Below, one piece after another: positions 2,417 to 31,680 of a DNA stretch of 64,000 nucleotides. The stretch comes from Candidatus Saccharimonadales bacterium (GTDB lineage: Bacteria; Patescibacteriota; Saccharimonadia; UBA4664; DATIHN01): positions 562 through 64,561 of the forward strand of contig DATIHN010000016.1 of the NCBI GenBank assembly GCA_035480635.1, written 5' to 3'. Numbering within the stretch: the first letter of the stretch is position 1; each line of letters begins with the position of its first letter. A model generated the notes under the pieces. It did no database searches. It was not told where the DNA came from and saw nothing but the letters and a program-made list of their open reading frames with translations. The position numbers and the translations under genes were made by a program.

Positions 2417-4870
2417 TTATTTCTTCAGGGTTGGTTGGCCGAGGGTCAGGCCATCGCCGCGGCGCAGCACGGTCACGGTATCGCCGGGTTTGAATTGGCC
2501 TGCCAGGATGCCATTCGCCAGCGGGTCTTCGATGTAGTCTTGGATAGCTCGTCGCATCGGCCGAGCACCCTGATCAACGTCGTAGCCCTTTTCGATTAAG
2601 TAATCTTTGGCTTGGGGCGTAACTTTGAGGCTAATGCCCTGTTCGCTAACACGTTCGTATAAATCGGCTAATTGGACCGCTAGGATTTTGCGCACATCCG
2701 GCCGGCTCAGGCTCTTGAAAACGATGACTTTATCCAGCCGATTTAAGAATTCTGGCCGGAAAGTCTTTTTGAGATCGCCCATGACCTTTTCGGTCACTTG
2801 GTTGTGAGCTTCCTCCAGCTCTTTTTGCTCACCAACGGTTTGGGCCTTAAAGCCCAGCACCGCCTCGCGGTAGAGGCTCTCGGCGCCGACGTTACTGGTC
2901 ATAATAATAATGGTGTTGCGGAAGTCCACCCGCCGGCCTTTGGCGTCGGTTAATTGACCGTCTTCAAGAACCTGCAACAGCATATTGAAGACATCGGGGT
3001 GGGCCTTTTCGATTTCATCGAGCAGCACCAGACTGTAGGGCTTCCGGCGAACGGTTTCGGTAAGCTGGCCACCTTCGTCGTAGCCAACATAACCAGCCGG
3101 AGCTCCGACCAAGCGGGAGGTGTTGTGGCGTTCCATGAATTCGCTCATGTCGATTTTGACGATGGCATCGTCGCTTTGGAACATTTCGCTTGCTAGCACC
3201 CGCGCCAGTTCGGTTTTACCCACGCCAGTGGGCCCAAGGAACATAAATGAGCCGATCGGGCGTTTAGCATCACTTATACCGGTACGGCTGCGGCGGATTG
3301 ATTTGGCCACTTCTTTTACGGCTTCGTCTTGACCAATGACGCGCTTGCGTAGGGTATCTTCGAGTTTAACTAAGTTTTCGGTATCAGTTTTAACTAGACG
3401 AGTCACGGGTACGCCGGTGATCAGGCTAATAACTTGAGCGATGTCCTCGGCGGTAATCTGAATGGTGTCTTCGTTTTTTTGGCTGGAGAGCTTTTGCTCG
3501 ATGATGCTGACCTTGGTTTTGAGCCGAGCGGCCAGTTCAAAATCTTGGCCGTCAACCGCTTCATCCATATCGGCCTTGGCTTCGACCAATTGCTTTTGTA
3601 AACCCCGGGTGTTTTTATTGGTACTGCCGCGCTTAATGCGAGCCAGACTTGCAGCCTCATCGACCAGATCAATGGCCTTATCCGGCAAGAAGCGATCAGC
3701 CACATAGCGCTTGGCTAATTTAGCGGCTTGCTCAATGGCCTCATCGGTGATCTCAACTCGGTGATGCTCTTCGTAACGCTGGCGCAAGCCGTGCAAGACG
3801 GCAATGGTTTCTTCAACTGTCGTTTCGGGCACAATGACGGGTTGGAAGCGCCGCTCCAAAGCCGCGTCTTTTTCAATGTGTTTGCGATATTCATCCAGAG
3901 TGGTGGCACCGATGGTTTGGATTTCGCCGCGAGATAATGAGGGCTTTAAGATGTTGGCGGCGTCAATAGCACCTTCAGCGGCGCCGGCGCCGACCACGGT
4001 GTGGAGCTCATCGATGAACAATATCACTTCAGGTGTGGCCTTGGCCTCGTCTAAAATCTTCTTCAATCGCTCTTCGAACTCGCCGCGGTATTTGGTACCG
4101 GCAATGACGCTGGCTAGATCGAGCATGACGATGCGTTTGTTTAGCAGCATCTCGGGCACTTCGTCGGAAATAATGCGCTGAGCCAAACCCTCGACAATGG
4201 CGGTTTTGCCAACGCCTGGTTCGCCAATTAAAACCGGGTTATTTTTGGTCCGGCGGTTCAAGATTGAGACCACTCGGCCAATTTCATTACTGCGACCAAC
4301 TACGGGATCAAGCTTGCCCTCACTAGCCTTAGCCGTTAGATCAATCCCAAAATGATCCAGGGCCGGAGTCTTCGACTTAGTGCGCTTAGGGCTGGTCGTT
4401 TTGGCCGATTCATCGGAGTAATAGTACTGCTGATTGCTTAAATAATTTTCTAGTTCGGCCCGAACAGTGGCCGGATCAACTTGGATTTCTTTTAATAAGG
4501 AATTAGCTCGAGCACTCTTTTGGCTCAGGATGGCGTAAAGAATATGCTCGGTGCCAGAATAGGGTTGGCCAAATTCTTGGGCAATTCGCAGCGAAATGGT
4601 CAGCGTATCGCGGGCCGTCTCACTGAGTCCCTTGCGATTGGCCCGGGCCAGAGCAGCACTAGAACTACCAGACAACCATAATTCAGCCTTTTCCCAGGTC
4701 ACACCAGCTTCAATCAGAATCTTAGCCCCGATCGAGCCCTCTTGGCGCAACACGCCCAGCAGGATATGTTCGGTGCCAATGTAGCCCGAACCCATGGTTC
4801 TAGCGATCGAATCGGCATTCTCCAGGCTTTTTTTGGCGTTCTCGGTTAATCTTTCAAATGCATCGTGCAT
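2417..4870 (-). CDS. clpC: ATP-dependent Clp protease ATP-binding subunit ClpC (817 aa).
   Basis: Two Clp_N repeats, two AAA+ modules ([16 protein letters not shown]), and a UVR-like linker. Confidence 0.9.
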
Positions 4871-24566: not shown

Positions 24567-24860
24567 CTATGCTACGAAATGAAGGCCGAATTGCCAGATG
24601 TAATAACTGGCTAGCATGATGCCTAAGGTAAAGGCTGTTAGCAACCGCAGGCGCCGATCCCACCAATAACTCAGCGCTACGGCGGCTAGCGCCGGTAGGC
24701 CAGCGTAACTATTGGGCGATCCGGTGCCACCTAGGGCGATTTTGGTCGAGACGTTATCGGTCACCGACACCATGAAGACGATAGCTAAAATTAATCCGAC
24801 CAAGGCAGCCAAGCGGCTGCGGTCGAGTTTAATAAGGGTTGGGTTTTTACTTTTGGCCAT
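24567..24860 (-). CDS. Small membrane protein (97 aa).
   Basis: Three hydrophobic segments. Confidence 0.4.
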   Translation of the reverse strand: MAKSKNPTLIKLDRSRLAALVGLILAIVFMVSVTDNVSTKIALGGTGSPNSYAGLPALAAVALSYWWDRRLRLLTAFTLGIMLASYYIWQFGLHFVA

Positions 24861-24944
24861 TTTGAATCCTATTTTTATACTATTATTATAGCATAAGCGG
24901 AATACTTAAACCGATTTTTTTAGCTATTCCTAATAACTGATTCC

Positions 24945-24973: not shown

Positions 24974-25009
24974 TGGGCGGTTCAGGACCTCGCCTATTTA
25001 AGGAGAGAC

Positions 25010-25288
25010 GTGAAGCACCGAAAAGGATCATCAAAAATCAAGTACGATCACCATATGATCTCGGGCCTTCGCGACTTTCTCGAAAGCATCGAAGACTGGC
25101 CGGAGATCAAATCGATCATCCCTGGTCGCATCAAACGCACCGGCATACATACAGCCCTGAAGCTCAAGGTCCAATACCCCACCGACACCGGTTTGAAGTG
25201 CCAGGCTCAGTCTGGGGGAGCAATCCAGGAGGTCTTCGTTGTCACATCCGTACCAGACGTGCTTGCTCGTAAGCTCAACAACCTATAG
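25010..25288 (+). CDS. Small hypothetical protein (92 aa), partner of the NYN gene.
   Basis: AGGAGA RBS and GTG start. The stop lies 12 nt before the NYN ORF. Confidence 0.45.
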   Translation: MKHRKGSSKIKYDHHMISGLRDFLESIEDWPEIKSIIPGRIKRTGIHTALKLKVQYPTDTGLKCQAQSGGAIQEVFVVTSVPDVLARKLNNL

Positions 25289-25300
25289 GGGTGAAGCAAC

Positions 25301-25828
25301 GTGGAGATGCCGAAGTTCGCATTAGTTGCCATCGATGGCGATAACATCGACCGCACGCTCTTTGGGGAGCTCAAGAGTCAACTTGCCCCAGGGGTCTTGG
25401 TGGAAGTGATAGCCGAACTGCTCCCCAATCACACCACCTGGAGCCTGGGCTGCTACACGGTTCCGCAAACCGACCGAGCTATGTCTCTCCAGCAGCATTA
25501 TCTGCGCGAGTTGGTGGCAGCCGGTATCGCTATTCGGCGATGGCGGCGGGGAGCCATTCGCGGCCGTACCGTCGGCTACCCCGACAGCTGGCTGGTGGAG
25601 CAGGTGGTGACCATTTGGGATCGATTCGACACGCTGGTATTAGTGACGGCCGACCGGGACTACGTCCCCTTGTTATCTAATGCCCAAGCCATGGGCAAAG
25701 ACACCGTCGTGCTTTCACCTCAACCGGTGGCTTGGCCCAGCTTCGTGCGAGTACATGAACTCGACTGGCTCGACACTCAACACCCAGGTCTTCTACGCTC
25801 ACTTATTGCCGCCCCGGCCTGGATATAA
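25301..25828 (+). CDS. NYN-domain (LabA-like, PIN-related) RNase.
   Basis: ALVAIDGDNIDR and LVLVTADRDYVPLL...GKDTVVL match the NYN acidic motifs. Confidence 0.7.
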   Translation: MEMPKFALVAIDGDNIDRTLFGELKSQLAPGVLVEVIAELLPNHTTWSLGCYTVPQTDRAMSLQQHYLRELVAAGIAIRRWRRGAIRGRTVGYPDSWLVEQVVTIWDRFDTLVLVTADRDYVPLLSNAQAMGKDTVVLSPQPVAWPSFVRVHELDWLDTQHPGLLRSLIAAPAWI

Positions 25829-25829
25829 G

Positions 25830-25870
25830 CCCCCTAGAGTCTATTTGGATTCTAGGGGGTTAACATTTTG
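25830..25870 (+). terminator. Rho-independent terminator.
   Basis: CCCCCTAGA ... TCTAGGGGG 9-bp stem followed by TTAACATTTTG. Confidence 0.6.
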
Positions 25871-25879
25871 ATAAAAGCA

Positions 25880-25908
25880 TTGACGTAGTTCAAAAAAAAT
25901 ACTAGAAT
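25880..25908 (+). promoter_or_regulatory. Strong sigma70 promoter: TTGACG, 17 nt spacer, TAGAAT.
   Basis: Near-consensus hexamers with 17-nt spacing, about 70 nt before the GAGGAGGG RBS and ATG 25980. Confidence 0.6.
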
Positions 25909-25979: not shown

Positions 25980-26726
25980 ATGGCAGGTACAGCAAACTCC
26001 ACCGACCAACCGACGTGGGTAACCATCGACATCGTATGTGTCGGTGACGAGCCCATGCTCTGTAACCCGATGAGTCGCGACCAGCTCGTGGCCATCGCCG
26101 AGAAGCGTCCAGTTGCCTGGCCCGCTGACCGTCCTGTGATCGAGCAGGCCGACGTTAAGGCCGAGCTGATGAGGGACACCGACGGCCACTACGGCTTCCC
26201 GCGGCAGTGGCTGCAGGGGGCCTTGAGGGAAGCTGGTCGCTCAGTACCCACCGGTAAGGCTGCTCGGCAGATGATCAGCACCGCTACCAGCACGCGCTTG
26301 CGCACCCTGGTGCGGATCGATCCAGTCTGCCTGAGCTTCAACGCCGACGGTGAGCGGTTCATCCGCTTCAGCAGTCACTCCGAGTACGAACGCGATGTCC
26401 GCAAGGGCGTCGGGGGTAACGCTGCCAAGCCGGTGGCGGTAGCGATCGTGCGGCCGCTCTTCCGTAACTGGGCCTTCCGCGTCCGCATCCAGGCATCCAC
26501 CAGCATCGACACCTCGCGCATTCGTGAGCTATTCGAGATCGCTGGTGCCAGCCAGGGTTTGGGCGACTTCCGCCCCGGCAAGGGTGGCGAGTTCGGCTGC
26601 TTCCAAGTGGCCTCGTTGGTCAAATACGACGATCCAGCCGAGGTACCGGAGTTCGTACTGGCCACCAACGCCATGACGGCGGCGGACAACGGCCAGGGCA
26701 AGGTTCACGAACTCGCCAGCACTTAG
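25980..26726 (+). CDS. Hypothetical protein (248 aa) with a glycine-rich loop GLGDFRPGKGGEFG.
   Basis: Monocistronic unit with its own promoter and terminator. The G-rich loop is loosely reminiscent of RAMP/Cas6 loops; this is unverified. Confidence 0.6.
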   Translation: MAGTANSTDQPTWVTIDIVCVGDEPMLCNPMSRDQLVAIAEKRPVAWPADRPVIEQADVKAELMRDTDGHYGFPRQWLQGALREAGRSVPTGKAARQMISTATSTRLRTLVRIDPVCLSFNADGERFIRFSSHSEYERDVRKGVGGNAAKPVAVAIVRPLFRNWAFRVRIQASTSIDTSRIRELFEIAGASQGLGDFRPGKGGEFGCFQVASLVKYDDPAEVPEFVLATNAMTAADNGQGKVHELAST

Positions 26727-26743
26727 CCGGCCAACCGACTTGT

Positions 26744-26779
26744 GGGCCGAGGCTTCGTGCCTCGGCCCACTTTCTTTTG
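26744..26779 (+). terminator. Rho-independent terminator.
   Basis: GGGCCGAGGC TTCGT GCCTCGGCCC followed by ACTTTCTTTTG. Confidence 0.65.
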
Positions 26780-26856: not shown

Positions 26857-27761
26857 GAGGGAGAACTCAAGTTCTCGCAAATAGTCTGGTCGAGTACAGT
26901 GGGGTCGTGTAGGTAAAGGCTTGCAGAACTACGGTACCGGGTAGGGACTGATGTTCCTACCATACCTAATGTTGGGCTAGGCTTGGTTCCGCTGGGTTGG
27001 TCAGCGTTTAGTGTGGTTATCTACCGGGCAGCAGCCGTCATGCTACTGCCAAACCTGCCCTACGGTGTGGTCCGGCCTGCTTCGTTGTGATGCCACCCAG
27101 TTAGGCATGGGGTAGCGGTCGCCAGACCGCTACTATAACTCCGGTAGGGTCCGCCATTGCAGTGTCGCCCACGCAGTTGTATGGCCCGCATGACTAGGGT
27201 TTGGTGGACTTTGGGGCGGCAGCCGACAGGTTGCCGCCATTACCTTATGTAAGGTTTACTGGGTTAGGGTTCGGCTCCATAGGCCTAGCTATTCTGCTGC
27301 TCGGGGCGGGAGAACCAAGATTCTCCCGCCAACCCTATTGTTTGGTACTGCCAGCTCACGTAAAGCATAGCTGCGTAGTCTAAGGCAAGGGGCAGCAGCT
27401 CCGGCTGCTGCCATCAGTCACGGTGACGTTCCGTGGATTAGGCTTTTGCCAGCCATGGCGTTGTCATGCTTGGTACGGGGTGGGAACCACAAAGCTCCCA
27501 CCATGGTTAGTCCACTGTGTGGTTGAGCCTGGTTTGTCGTCGTCGAGCTTGGCACACTTAGGGGCGAGACCGCTTGAACGGTCTCGCTGACACTTGTGGT
27601 AAGGTTGAGATCCCTACAGTAGAGTGCTATCGGCTTAGCTACGGGGTAGTGGCTCCGGCCGCTGCCGACATTGTGGTCGACTAGCGTAGAGTTGATTACT
27701 CTGTTGTGTGTCTCGTTTGAGTTTCCTAAGGGGTGGGGAGGGACTAAAATCCTTCCCCACC
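26857..27761 (+). repeat. Array 1: 11 tandem units of about 85 bp, each starting with a GGGG-initiated GC-rich stem-loop. Sequences diverge but structure is conserved.
   Basis: Hairpin starts at 26857, 26939, 27026, 27109, 27214, 27303, 27389, 27477, 27561, 27643 and 27730, with 82-105 bp spacing. Stems co-vary, with plus-strand G-U wobbles and one C-A mismatch in unit 3. There is no ORF. Confidence 0.7.
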
Positions 27762-27870: not shown

Positions 27871-29694
27871 ATGAGCGATTACAGTGACGCCTTGTCGCAA
27901 GAGAACCTCATGACCTGCTTCCCCCGTCAGTACCGTCGCCCCAACAACTCTCAACTGTCTGCCTTTGCCGCCATCGCCGAACACGGTAGTGAAACACTCG
28001 AGGCACCGACTGGCACCGGCAAGACCGCCGTTGGCTGGTCCTACCTCGAGGCCTTGGAACGAGCTGGCGCTACCTCACTAGTGGCTATTGCTCCCAACAA
28101 GACTCACGTAAACCAGTGGAAAGAGCTCCACCCCGATATGACGGTCGCCTATGGCCGCAGTGAGTACGACTGCCTTTACTACGACGAGGAGGACGAACCC
28201 TTTAAGGCCGACGAGATTCCTTGTTTGACCTTAACCAATTGTCCCCACCGCGTTGACGTAGAGACTGGCCAGACCGTGGAAGAGGGCGCTATGCCATGCC
28301 CCTACTACCAGGCCAAGTTCGAGGCCAGACGCTCGCGCAAACTGGTTTGCACCATGAGCTTCTACCTCTTCAATAACGTCTTTCGTGGGGACTTTGAGCC
28401 CCCCGATGGGCTGGTGATTGACGAGGCCGACCAGATTGCCAAAGTCGTTCGCGGCGCGCTCAGCTACGAAATCACCGACTTCCAACTGCGGCGCAGTGTG
28501 ATGTTGCTGGAGAGCATCGGGGCCGACGACGAGGCCAAATCGGTCAAGCAATTCCTGCGCAATATGGTCGCTATCCTGAAGCGCAAGCCCCAGGGGCAGC
28601 CAACCTTGCTAACGGACGGCGAGATTGTTCGCCTGCTGGATGCGATTGGTCAAATTGACGCCGAGGCTGTTCGGAAGCGTATTGCACGTGCCATCAAGAC
28701 TGGCGAAATCGATCCTTACGAGGACCGAGAGGTGCTAACCAGGCTAGAGCGGCTGACCCAAAACCTGGGGCGCTATTTGCGCTCTCTGGGGTATGCTCTG
28801 CCGACCGGTGAATACCACGCCCTCAACTTGGTGACCTACGCCTACAGCGACAACGAGGTAACCGACGAGAACCGGGTCAACTATAAGCTCATCATCAAGA
28901 GCTACCACGTAGCCGGTCTAGTGCGCAAGCTGCTCAGCCCAAACACCCTGGCCATGTCGGCGACCATTGGCGACAACACCGTCTTTGGCTACGAAACCGG
29001 CATTCAACTGCCATTCGTGAGCCTGCCGGGTACGTTCCCAGCAGAAAACGCCCTGGTACTGCTGCCTACAGATACGCCCAACTTGGCTCAGAAGGAGCGC
29101 AGCCGTAACCAACCCACCAGAGTGCTACGCCACATTGCCAGAGCCTGTGGCGACTTTGCCAAAAAGGATATCCGCAGCCTAGTGATTGTGGTTAGTAACC
29201 GCGAACGCGACAAGTTCCTTTGGCTCTGCCAAGAAGCTGAGGAAGATGTCGACGTAGTCAGCTACGGCGATGGCCTGACCCCCCGTCAGGCTCTGGCGGC
29301 CTTCAGGGAAGGTCAAGGGACGGTGCTCTTGGGCACGGTGGCCAACTACGGCTCGGGCGTTGACTTGCCAGAGGAGATTGCTCCAGTCACGTTTGTGCTA
29401 CGACCGGGCTACCCCAACCCCAACGACCCGTTCGCTCAGTTCGAGCGGCGACGCTTTGGCAACGGCTCTTACTGGAAGGTCTGGAACTGGCGAGTGATGA
29501 TTGAAGCTCTGCAGGTGCGCGGGCGCAATATCCGCAGTGCCAGTGATCGTGGTGCCACCATCTTCATCTCGCAACAGTTCCGGCGTTTCCTGTTTGCATC
29601 ACTGCCGGAATGGCTCAAGGACAGTTACGACGGCAGCCTGACATTCGAGGAGGCCTGCGGGCGCGTTCTCGAGCTGATGGAAGCTCAGTCGTAA
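27871..29694 (+). CDS. Rad3/XPD/DinG-family SF2 helicase with an Fe-S cluster domain (607 aa).
   Basis: APTGTGKT Walker A, a four-Cys cluster, VIDEAD box, SAT motif, and QVRGRNIRSASDRG motif VI. AAAGGAGGG RBS upstream. Confidence 0.8.
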   Translation: MSDYSDALSQENLMTCFPRQYRRPNNSQLSAFAAIAEHGSETLEAPTGTGKTAVGWSYLEALERAGATSLVAIAPNKTHVNQWKELHPDMTVAYGRSEYDCLYYDEEDEPFKADEIPCLTLTNCPHRVDVETGQTVEEGAMPCPYYQAKFEARRSRKLVCTMSFYLFNNVFRGDFEPPDGLVIDEADQIAKVVRGALSYEITDFQLRRSVMLLESIGADDEAKSVKQFLRNMVAILKRKPQGQPTLLTDGEIVRLLDAIGQIDAEAVRKRIARAIKTGEIDPYEDREVLTRLERLTQNLGRYLRSLGYALPTGEYHALNLVTYAYSDNEVTDENRVNYKLIIKSYHVAGLVRKLLSPNTLAMSATIGDNTVFGYETGIQLPFVSLPGTFPAENALVLLPTDTPNLAQKERSRNQPTRVLRHIARACGDFAKKDIRSLVIVVSNRERDKFLWLCQEAEEDVDVVSYGDGLTPRQALAAFREGQGTVLLGTVANYGSGVDLPEEIAPVTFVLRPGYPNPNDPFAQFERRRFGNGSYWKVWNWRVMIEALQVRGRNIRSASDRGATIFISQQFRRFLFASLPEWLKDSYDGSLTFEEACGRVLELMEAQS

Positions 29695-29757
29695 GGAACA
29701 CATTTACGGTAGAGCCAGGCTAGATACGTTAGTGCAGCGCGAAGCAGGCTAAGTTGT

Positions 29758-30790
29758 CGGTGGAGAGGCCGAGCTATGGGCCTCTCCACAAACTATCTGG
29801 TTCGGTAACGCGGGCTCAACTTTTGTGCCGTCATCTACTGATTGGTGCGGGGCAGCGACTTTGGTCGCTGCCAATCATTAGCTTCGGCTAGGTCAGGCTT
29901 TGCGCGCTGCTATAGGGCGGAGTTTGGTCCTGGTGGGGAGGCGAAACAGTTGGCCTCTCCACAAAACTTTCGTTAAGGTGTGGTATGGTTTGCCAGTTTT
30001 CGGTCTGCCACATCTTGGGTGGAGAAGCCAAACAGCTTCTCCATGAAAATCAGTGGTAGGGTAGCACGAGCCGTTGGACTCAGCCTTATTCTTGGGTATC
30101 GGGTGGAGTACCCAACTCCACCAAAAATTTGCTTAGCTATGCTAAGGTTATCCCCGGTGGCCTACGGTCTGGGACGGAGGCATTAGTGTCTTCGTCAAAC
30201 CTTAGGTATGGTGACCCCCTCTCCGTTGACGTATGCCAAGGCCACGTAGCTTGCGTTTCTGTTGAGCAGCGAATTGGGCGGAAGCAGAAATGCTTCCGCC
30301 ACTATTTCCGTCAGCTCGGGTTGGCTATGATGTCGTTGCGTTGATCTGGGAACGGTCTACTAGACTACGGGGCGGGGTTGTGTAACCCCGTTAAAAATTA
30401 CGGTCTGTTCAGGCTAGGCGAGCCATGCTGACTTTAGACACGGCCGGCTTCGGGGTGGGAGTGACGATGCTTCCACCAGAAATATCGTCAAGTCGAGAGA
30501 TGCACAGTGCTGTTGTTTTGCGTGAAGTACGGCTCGATAGGGTAAAGGGTGGCCGAGCAATCGGCCACTATGACTTGGGTTCGCTACTCTGTAGTAATGT
30601 CGCTTTCAGCATCGCATAGTATTGGGTGGCTGGCTTGCTAGCCACCAGCCCTACGCTAGGATTCAGTCCGGCTTTGTGGGCCTCGGTAGCTCACGGCATT
30701 CCACAGCCCGCTCGAGTCCGTTGCATTGTTCAATGGTTCAGTTGGGTAAGCGGCGGGGAGGCAGTTAAACTGCTTCCCCGCCTTTTCAAT
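29758..30790 (+). repeat. Array 2: about 11 tandem units of the same GGGG-hairpin family. The last hairpin doubles as a terminator.
   Basis: Hairpins at 29761, 29851, 29933, 30020, 30102, 30277, 30373, 30452, 30547, 30624 and 30752. G-U wobbles are plus-strand only. Hairpin K is followed by TTTTC. Confidence 0.65.
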
Positions 30791-30870: not shown

Positions 30871-30944
30871 GGCACCATGGCGGAGTGGTTACGCAGAGGT
30901 CTGCAAAACCTTTTACACCGGTTCGATTCCGGTTGGTGCCTCCA
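30871..30944 (+). tRNA. tRNA-Cys (GCA).
   Basis: Cloverleaf with anticodon loop CTGCAAA, T-loop GGTTCGATTCC, and an encoded CCA. Confidence 0.85.
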
Positions 30945-31076
30945 GGAATTTGGTACAGACATTTGTCTGTGCTGGATTCCTACGAAGCCGGAAGCGAAAG
31001 CGTAGGTTCGGTGGACGTAGGCGCGCAGGCAAGGGACAATAAATTGGTTCTTGCCGAGCACCGAGGGAGGTGGCTG

Positions 31077-31095
31077 CCAAGCCACATTCCGGTTG
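31077..31095 (+). repeat. 19-nt duplicate of the tRNA-Cys 3' end (ATTCCGGTTGGTGCCTCCA).
   Basis: Exact copy of 30926..30944, 133 bp downstream. It resembles an att-site footprint. Confidence 0.7.
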
Positions 31096-31105
31096 GTGCC
31101 TCCAA

Positions 31106-31192
31106 GTAAAACCAGGGCGAGTGGCGGAATTGGTATACGCGGCGGACTTAAAATCCGCTGCCAGCAATGGCTTGAGAGTTCGAGTCTCTCCT
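31106..31192 (+). tRNA. tRNA-Leu (TAA).
   Basis: Anticodon loop CTTAAAA, long variable arm, and CCA. Confidence 0.8.
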
Positions 31193-31240
31193 CGCCCACC
31201 AAAGATAGTCGGGCATTCGAATTTTTGCTAGAATGTGCCG

Positions 31241-31316
31241 ATACAACGTGGCGCCTTAGCTCAGTTGGTAGAGCAGTGGCCTGAAGAGCCTCGTGTCGTT
31301 GGTTCGAATCCAACAG
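31241..31316 (+). tRNA. tRNA-Phe (GAA).
   Basis: GGCGCCTTAGCTCAGTTGGTAGAGC ... CTGAAGA anticodon loop ... GGTTCGAATCC ... CCA. Confidence 0.85.
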
Positions 31317-31460
31317 GCGCCACCAGATTTTAAGAAAATCTGATTTTATTAGGCGAAATCAAACCAAGCCAAGCTGTTTGATGAGCCAAAGGAGAAACCG
31401 AATTGTAAGCCGAAAGTAAATTGGTGCCAATTTACGGAGGCTGGAGGTCGGTTTTGACGC

Positions 31461-31536
31461 GCGGGTGTAGCTCAGCTGATAGAGCGCTTCCTTGCCAAGG
31501 AAGAGGCCCCGGGTTTGAGTCCCGGTACCCGCACCA
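31461..31536 (+). tRNA. tRNA-Gly (GCC).
   Basis: GCGGGTGTAGCTCAG ... TTGCCAA anticodon loop ... GGGTTTGAGTCCC ... CCA. Confidence 0.85.
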
Positions 31537-31661: not shown

Positions 31662-31680
31662 AGTCCCGGTACCCGCACCA
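31662..31680 (+). repeat. 19-nt duplicate of the tRNA-Gly 3' end (AGTCCCGGTACCCGCACCA).
   Basis: Exact copy of 31518..31536, 126 bp downstream. Confidence 0.7.

Follow-up and report, generated by a model that had tools for sequence, protein, structure and literature searches.

A DUF2103–NYN gene pair beside a predicted VIPR locus with two guide arrays in a Candidatus Saccharimonadales chromosome

Genes of the locus

A 64-kb stretch of the chromosome of a Candidatus Saccharimonadales bacterium (GCA_035480635.1, contig DATIHN010000016.1, positions 562 to 64,561; hereafter the window, in which position 1 is the first letter) encodes a small DUF2103 protein, an NYN-domain protein predicted to be a nuclease, a Cas7-like RAMP protein of the Vipr family and a DinG/XPD-like helicase. 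The order on the + strand, to which all of these belong, is DUF2103, NYN, vipr, a repeat array of about 10 units (array 1), the helicase gene, a second array of about 12 units (array 2) and tRNA-Cys. Judged from its sequence, the locus is a VIPR (Viral Interference Programmable Repeat) system with the DinG/XPD-like helicase as its accessory gene and arrays of ~10 + 12 guide (vrRNA) units. A preliminary description of the window had recognized the DUF2103–NYN pair and overlooked this context, i.e., the RAMP and helicase genes with both repeat arrays.

VIPR systems are known from 2026 preprints only (bioRxiv 10.64898/2026.04.26.720920, 10.64898/2026.04.26.720927), in which helicase accessory genes are already mentioned. 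According to the main text of these preprints, Vipr RAMP protomers polymerise on vrRNAs that consist of 9–16 (up to 30) YNNGG repeats and a structured tail, and the filament reads double-stranded DNA via the NN dinucleotides, with one base in three skipped. Seven types are distinguished there. Their accessory (vap) genes, called uncharacterised, include predicted DNA binders, nucleases and helicases; types III–V encode nucleases or helicases, and these genes are described as diversifying the outcome.

The vipr gene (25980..26726) encodes a protein of 248 aa with no Pfam match. Its AlphaFold2 model, of moderate confidence (pLDDT 68.6), matches almost exclusively CRISPR RAMPs, with Csm3, Cas7-11 and type VII Cas7 found by Foldseek. 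Scans with family alignments recovered homologues in two Saccharibacteria genomes, 14 metagenome loci and 58 IMG/VR contigs (loci are referred to below by our own numbers, L). A profile of 37 family members matches the solved 'SUSP1 Vipr protein' in the Protein Data Bank (PDB 36pp_D) over its whole length (E 5.1e-24), and this sequence match is independent of the structural model. The protein has the RRM core, G-loop and thumb of Vipr-family RAMPs. The invariant G-loop motif D-F-R-P is D196-F197-R198-P199 in the window protein and corresponds to D177-W178-R179, residues whose contacts recognise GGY according to the main text of one preprint (bioRxiv 10.64898/2026.04.26.720927). We assign the locus to VIPR on the basis of the profile match, the RAMP fold, the G-loop correspondence, the pentamer tracts, the covarying one-strand hairpins of the arrays and the conserved helicase 3' of vipr. 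It is a minimal locus, as only vipr and the DinG-like helicase gene are conserved across loci. Vipr, helicase and arrays recur together in at least nine loci, mostly from Saccharibacteria.

The helicase gene (27871..29694) encodes a 607-aa SF2 protein of the DinG/XPD family and is an accessory (vap-type) gene of this VIPR clade. The protein matches the PADLOC typeIV_DinG model over its full length (E 2.4e-39), contains the Pfam domains Helicase_C_2, DEAD and DEAD_2, and has XPD/Rad3 as its best PDB matches. Homologues (48–58% identity) lie 3' of vipr in all nine loci where one was found. The gap between the two genes, 0.14–2.8 kb, holds from one to ~25 hairpin units, and further units follow the helicase gene. 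Residues ~100–145 hold four cysteines (C..C..C..C in CLYYDE...CLTLTNCPH...MPCPYYQ), a segment that would fit the iron-sulfur cluster domain of XPD. In CasDinG, the iron-sulfur domain is described as only vestigial (PMC10450177).

Both open reading frames (ORFs) of the pair are present on the + strand where the preliminary description placed them. The DUF2103 gene (25010..25288, 92 aa) begins with GTG and is preceded by AAGGAG (25000–25005, 4–5 nt before the start). This long start is supported because the N-terminal KIKYEH is conserved among DUF2103 homologues. The protein matches Pfam DUF2103 (PF09876) with E 8.3e-15 and 55 bits (cut-off 22.4). A Cys/His metal-binding cluster, as implied by the family label 'predicted metal-binding protein', is not conserved in the homologue alignment, and the sole Cys of the window protein is replaced by Leu in close homologues.

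The NYN gene (25307..25828) starts with ATG and encodes 173 aa according to the gene caller and the NCBI record; an alternative GTG start at 25301 would give 175 aa. Depending on this choice, the gap after the DUF2103 stop is 18 nt (ATG) or 12 nt (GTG), so the 12 nt first reported hold for the GTG start. The protein matches Pfam NYN (PF01936) at model positions 4–127 of 145 (E 1.3e-7, 32.7 bits, cut-off 24.2). The acidic motifs that had been called clear are indeed so: across the four family members, IDGDN (D10, D12), YPD (D93) and TADRD (D116, D118) do not vary and no Asp is substituted. Thus, the candidate catalytic acids appear intact, where D10, D12, D93, D116 and D118 are assigned as catalytic from the motif patterns IDGDN and TADRD and not from a structure alignment. 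A search of the PDB with the family profile returned no match, so no solved relative is reachable by sequence. We predict that the protein is a metal-dependent nuclease.

Two arrays of hairpin-capped pentamer tracts

The intervals between vipr and the helicase gene (1.1 kb) and between the helicase gene and tRNA-Cys (1.2 kb) are free of ORFs and hold the vrRNA arrays. Array 1 (~26881..27761, with the start judged by eye from the sequence) has 10 units, recognized from their hairpins, a covariance model and a 5-nt period. The hairpins are at 26940, 27027, 27111, 27215, 27305, 27391, 27479, 27563, 27645 and 27732. Array 2 (29700..30786), recognized from its hairpins and the covariance model, has 11 units and a final unit with a hairpin (30752–30782, then TTTT) that doubles as terminator. 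Its hairpins are at 29760, 29851, 29933, 30019, 30102, 30173, 30277, 30371, 30454, 30548, 30625 and 30748.

Each unit consists of a tract of 10–20 pentamers NN-(G/C)G-Y, a GC-rich 3' hairpin of 8–12 bp and a conserved A. This layout is the one given for vrRNAs of VIPR systems. The hairpins begin with GG and end with CC before this A, lie on one strand only and recur every 82–104 nt. Such a hairpin caps every one of ~52 units in three loci and is also predicted when single units are folded. When only perfect stems of 9 bp or more are counted, the + strand of the window has 12 hairpins, all 12 within the 2.3 kb of the arrays. The same architecture fills 2.6 kb 3' of the vipr homologue in L004. 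Stems vary between units yet stay paired, with double changes at 7 of 9 pairs and 46 cells changed on both sides (13 expected); these covariation counts are biased, since units were chosen as hairpins, a bias that does not affect the statistics on density, strand and position. The loops are often of UNCG type (CTTCGG occurs six times), which points to RNA made from the + strand. With 20 units as its basis, a covariance model recovered ~30 further units, and the convincing ones are all on the + strand and inside arrays; the exceptions to the + strand are one marginal and two partial reverse matches. This model also finds units in loci outside its training set, and gave no match in nine IMG/VR loci scanned (L031–L040).

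Conservation within the tracts was measured between hairpins, with the hairpins as anchors. Spectral power at period 5, calculated per segment, is 2.40, compared with 0.745 ± 0.061 in shuffled tracts (z = 27) and 0.79 in random segments of the window, and no other period stands out in these spectra. T or C occupies positions +6, +11, +16 and so on, with G before each. The tracts are 50–101 nt long; 29 of 48 have a length that is a multiple of 5 and 17 more are within 1 nt of a multiple. The consensus is looser than GGY, i.e., (G/C)GY with a GGY fraction of 0.5–0.7. Since the phase is reset at the hairpins, a Fourier analysis across the whole region did not show the 5-nt period, and the per-segment analysis was required. 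We also considered and rejected a G-quadruplex reading of the GG-N3 repeats, as conservation of the T/C is no lower than that of the first G.

Searches of the arrays and nine related loci against Rfam, at gathering and at permissive thresholds, returned only tRNAs and one unrelated LOOT RNA, and no ribozymes. A minimal target search within the sequences analysed here yielded no vrRNA targets above background under any skip rule, and two exact gapped 22-nt guide patterns had 0 matches in IMG/VR. The LOOT RNA (RF03000, 71 bits) is at 4861–4984 of L022, ~5 kb upstream of vipr.

Tail hairpins recur in other patterns in two further loci. In L027 (10653–13785), the tail hairpin AGCGGGAGTCATTAAYTTGACTCCCGCT occurs as five identical copies that alternate with a second hairpin type. 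This suggests a higher-order repeat or recent duplication of units; the units of the window are diverged by contrast. In L013 (5590–5860, 3' of vipr), GGGTAGGCAGCAATGCCTAC occurs twice, as does CAGCAGGCGG..CCTGCTGG, in near-identical pairs ~110–130 nt apart. These paired hairpins may be another tail architecture.

A replication-origin or centromere-like DNA repeat, with the RAMP-like protein acting as a phage single-strand-binding protein, was considered as another identity for the locus because Vipr homologues in IMG/VR sit in replication modules. It was dropped because of the direct match to Vipr, the strand asymmetry, the UNCG-type loops and the covariation. The phage homologues concerned (22–35% identity; IMG/VR contigs L031, L032, L034, L037 and L040) have SF2 helicases with a zinc ribbon, PrimPol, PolA and a PD-(D/E)XK nuclease as neighbours.

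The gene pair: distribution and possible roles

The NYN family is very rare, with 4 proteins among 5.8 billion searched. Searches of IMG/VR, of GTDB (one genome per species) and of JGI metagenomes gave no relatives, and tblastn searches of GenBank phages with NYN and Vipr gave no match. All four NYN genes are immediately upstream of vipr and co-oriented with it. The linked Viprs form one subclade (62–96% mutual identity, 32–40% to Viprs without NYN), and neither NYN nor DUF2103 was found in 74 other Vipr loci (L015–L088). DUF2103 is present at three of the four NYN loci, where its distance to NYN is 12–18 nt (the window) or 1 and 6 nt (L004 and L089, in either order), and proteins of these three loci are 58–73% identical. 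The small upstream ORF is thus a real, conserved and tightly linked gene, as first proposed. In the fourth locus, L005, NYN occurs without DUF2103, and three vrRNA-like units lie directly upstream of NYN in place of the DUF2103 gene.

The DUF2103 family is large (540 clusters at 50% identity). Homologues with 45–60% identity occur without NYN in L006, L009 and L090, where the contexts are a phage-like contig, a position beside MiaB and a position beside an FtsE-like ATPase in a cell-division cluster. No DUF2103 relatives were found in IMG/VR and no DUF2103–NYN fusion proteins were found. The pair was never seen as a free-moving module or outside the vipr context. It is a lineage-specific addition to a helicase-type VIPR locus on the chromosome of Candidatus Saccharimonadales.

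Small genes make up the phage-like contig in which the DUF2103 gene of L006 (604–894) lies; among them are genes for a UvrD-type helicase, a sigma-70 region-4 protein and a pyrimidine-dimer excision enzyme (Pyr_excise). Other relatives (P0034, P0039, P0042, P0045, P0048 and P0050) have 200–340 aa. Their long tail is disordered, basic and rich in Ser and Pro, and a short C-terminal helix (LW.E.L..H.EL..LE) is conserved; no Pfam domain was identified in this part.

The preliminary description placed the pair between a putative promoter and a terminator. Candidates do exist on both sides, but both are weak. Upstream of the DUF2103 gene are three overlapping sigma-70-like promoter candidates (24853..24889), each with only 9/12 consensus matches. 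At the 3' end of NYN is an imperfect hairpin (25823..25866), an inverted repeat with 19-nt arms that are 79% complementary and a 6-nt loop, with AACATTTT directly 3' of it. The best promoter-like site of the region (TTGACG-17-TAGAAT, 10/12) is 5' of vipr, at 25880..25908, and a hairpin resembling an intrinsic terminator (26742..26770, a 12-bp stem with 10 GC pairs, then TTTCTTTT) is 3' of vipr. A hairpin of the latter type also occurs 3' of vipr in L004 and L089. The pair thus appears to have promoter-like and terminator-like signals of its own, separate from those of vipr. As first noted, it lies within an island, which has a raised G+C content (0.54–0.61, compared with about 0.50).

Defence genes gather in islands. 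This, the tight coupling of a small upstream gene to a nuclease gene (gaps of 1–18 nt in three loci) and the separate expression signals would suit a self-contained toxin-antitoxin or abortive-infection module, in which NYN is the toxin, DUF2103 neutralises it and VIPR is merely a neighbour in a defence or mobile island. The preliminary description had leaned toward such a toxin-immunity-like pair. We regard it as improbable. PADLOC returned no match for DUF2103 and only an unconvincing one for NYN (E 0.043). The proposed domain search for antitoxin folds identified DUF2103, and the confident predicted model of this protein lacks an antitoxin-type DNA-binding fold. Each gene occurs without the other, NYN in L005 and close homologues of DUF2103 in housekeeping and phage-like contexts, yet the pair is always next to vipr.

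tRNA-Cys (30871..30944), identified with ARAGORN and Rfam, stands at the right edge of the island as the first of four tRNA genes (30871–31536). Bacterial NYN genes have been linked by gene neighbourhood to tRNA and rRNA maturation (PMC5499597), so NYN could be a housekeeping tRNA/rRNA-processing nuclease located near the tRNA cluster by chance. This is very hard to reconcile with a family of four proteins that is absent from the GTDB species genomes, the JGI metagenome scan and IMG/VR, with the position of NYN in the G+C-rich island and with its constant adjacency to vipr, and we consider it highly improbable.

The last 19 nt of tRNA-Cys (30926–30944) are repeated exactly at 31086–31104, 160 nt downstream, and those of tRNA-Gly (31518–31536) at 31662–31680, 144 nt downstream. 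Such repeats resemble scars left at attachment sites when small elements integrate or excise. The VIPR island is not bracketed by them; it is on the 5' side of tRNA-Cys. A tRNA gene is also present ~400–550 nt upstream of vipr in L010 (3409–3480) and L015 (3244–3314). VIPR islands seem to be located at tRNA genes in these two loci and the window.

The reading that we favour, tentatively and with rather less than even confidence, is that the pair is an accessory operon of the VIPR system and that NYN cuts array transcripts at the base of the hairpins, as a functional analogue of Cas6. NYN would be a metal-dependent endoribonuclease that acts on long array transcripts. It would cut at the 3' base of each tail hairpin, after CC and before the conserved A, and cleavage would release vrRNAs of about 85–95 nt. 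DUF2103 would be a small RNA-binding or regulatory subunit of NYN. A more specific version, in which NYN with DUF2103 as cofactor is a dedicated non-RAMP enzyme for VIPR array maturation that one Saccharibacteria lineage acquired and that recognises the covarying shape of the hairpins, not their sequence, is a somewhat more doubtful proposition.

Processing by NYN is favoured because the arrays need to be cut and no ribozyme was found in them. In other VIPR types, hammerhead ribozymes are interspersed in the arrays, and no processing protein for VIPR arrays is named, according to the preprints' main text (bioRxiv 10.64898/2026.04.26.720920, 10.64898/2026.04.26.720927). It is also favoured because all four NYN genes adjoin vipr and the linked Viprs are one subclade, and because of the position of the three units directly upstream of NYN in L005. 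RNA cleavage at helix bases is known for enzymes of the NYN/PIN-like kind, e.g., PRORP (PMC5499597).

Several points weigh against array processing by the pair. Helicase-type loci without NYN have equally long arrays with like hairpins and no ribozyme (e.g., ~25 + 6 hairpins in L022); therefore, a dedicated NYN is not generally needed. SUSP1 VIPR functions in E. coli with vipr and vrRNAs alone, according to the main text of the preprints, so host RNases can suffice. The separate expression signals of the pair and the occurrence of DUF2103, which is not a dedicated partner of NYN, as a broad family in unrelated contexts point in the same direction.

Alternatively, NYN (with DUF2103) may be a VIPR effector that degrades exposed target transcripts or displaced single strands after the filament and helicase have acted. 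The strict linkage of NYN to vipr is consistent with this role, as is the treatment of a DUF2103-like domain as a candidate effector domain in the Menshen paper (PMC12065111). Moreover, the preprints' main text includes predicted nucleases and helicases among the VIPR accessory genes, and the nuclease-bearing types are said to look like host defence. The nuclease in that text is HNH, however, with no mention of NYN, and NYN domains are predicted RNases rather than DNases (PMC5499597). The expression signals set apart from those of vipr argue against an effector, as does the lack of a recruitment domain or fusion, with the long DUF2103 proteins carrying disordered tails only. On balance, we consider the effector role unlikely, if far from negligible.

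With the window, a chromosomal VIPR system of the helicase type, complete and with ~22 guide units, is placed in an epibiont of the Candidate Phyla Radiation (CPR). Its guide tails are simple hairpins and keep their shape through compensatory changes. The rare NYN nuclease and the DUF2103 protein are indicated as lineage-specific VIPR add-ons. If NYN processes the arrays, this would explain how multi-guide VIPR transcripts mature without ribozymes and would offer a compact processing enzyme for engineered multi-guide arrays. It would also be the first protein-based factor in VIPR guide biogenesis and an independent invention of hairpin-directed array processing. If NYN is instead an effector, it would show that silencing can pass into destruction of the target by a further route. 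In both cases, a first concrete functional context would be gained for DUF2103, whose more than 500 clusters have no known function.

Comparison with known systems

The pair resembles type II toxin-antitoxin systems of the VapBC/PIN kind in that a small upstream gene is tightly coupled to a gene for a nuclease of the PIN-like superfamily. It differs in that DUF2103 lacks a DNA-binding antitoxin fold, each gene occurs alone and the pair itself is not mobile. Type III toxin-antitoxin systems (ToxIN) share with the NYN loci an endoribonuclease gene and tandem structured RNA repeats, and L005 has three units directly before NYN. The repeats of the NYN loci, however, are guide units of VIPR that go with vipr and are found in loci lacking NYN as well. 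Moreover, the window units are diverged and 85–95 nt long, whereas ToxI repeats are near-identical and about 36 nt.

Type IV-A CRISPR-Cas (Csf1-Csf2-Csf3-Csf5 plus CasDinG) is similar in several respects: its RAMP is Cas7-like and polymerises along the guide RNA, its partner is a helicase of the DinG family, adaptation genes are absent, and each guide unit has a 3' hairpin with an A-rich handle after it. In contrast to a contiguous spacer, the guide of the window would be read at a 5-nt period via NN, and the helicase is nearer by sequence to XPD/Rad3 among solved structures. We rejected a true type IV CRISPR-Cas locus, as there is no Csf1, Csf3 or Cas6/Csf5, PADLOC matches only the DinG component and the repeats are non-identical.

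What NYN would share with Cas6 pre-crRNA endoribonucleases is only the proposed role, in which a precursor with several guide units is cut at the base of each stable hairpin. The folds are unrelated, PIN-like metallonuclease in NYN and RAMP in Cas6, and cleavage by NYN is a proposal.

The closest known systems are the helicase types of VIPR. Shared features are a Vipr homologue with the conserved G-loop, tandem pentamer tracts (10–20 pentamers per tract in the window) capped by a structured 3' tail, arrays that flank protein genes, a two-gene core of vipr and one accessory gene, and the lack of a CRISPR array and of Cas1/Cas2. The main text of the preprints (bioRxiv 10.64898/2026.04.26.720920, 10.64898/2026.04.26.720927) does not mention NYN, DUF2103, Saccharibacteria, DinG by name or plain covarying hairpin tails; the supplementary tables, which are outside this comparison, may list the pair. 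Relative to that text, the window locus differs in its extra DUF2103–NYN operon. Its tail is a plain GC-rich hairpin that varies in sequence and covaries between units, whereas the SUSP1 clade is described as having an invariant, pseudoknotted tail. Further differences are a looser repeat consensus ((G/C)GY), long arrays of about 22 units and the host, a CPR bacterium of the Saccharimonadales, in which the locus is chromosomal and lies beside a tRNA gene.

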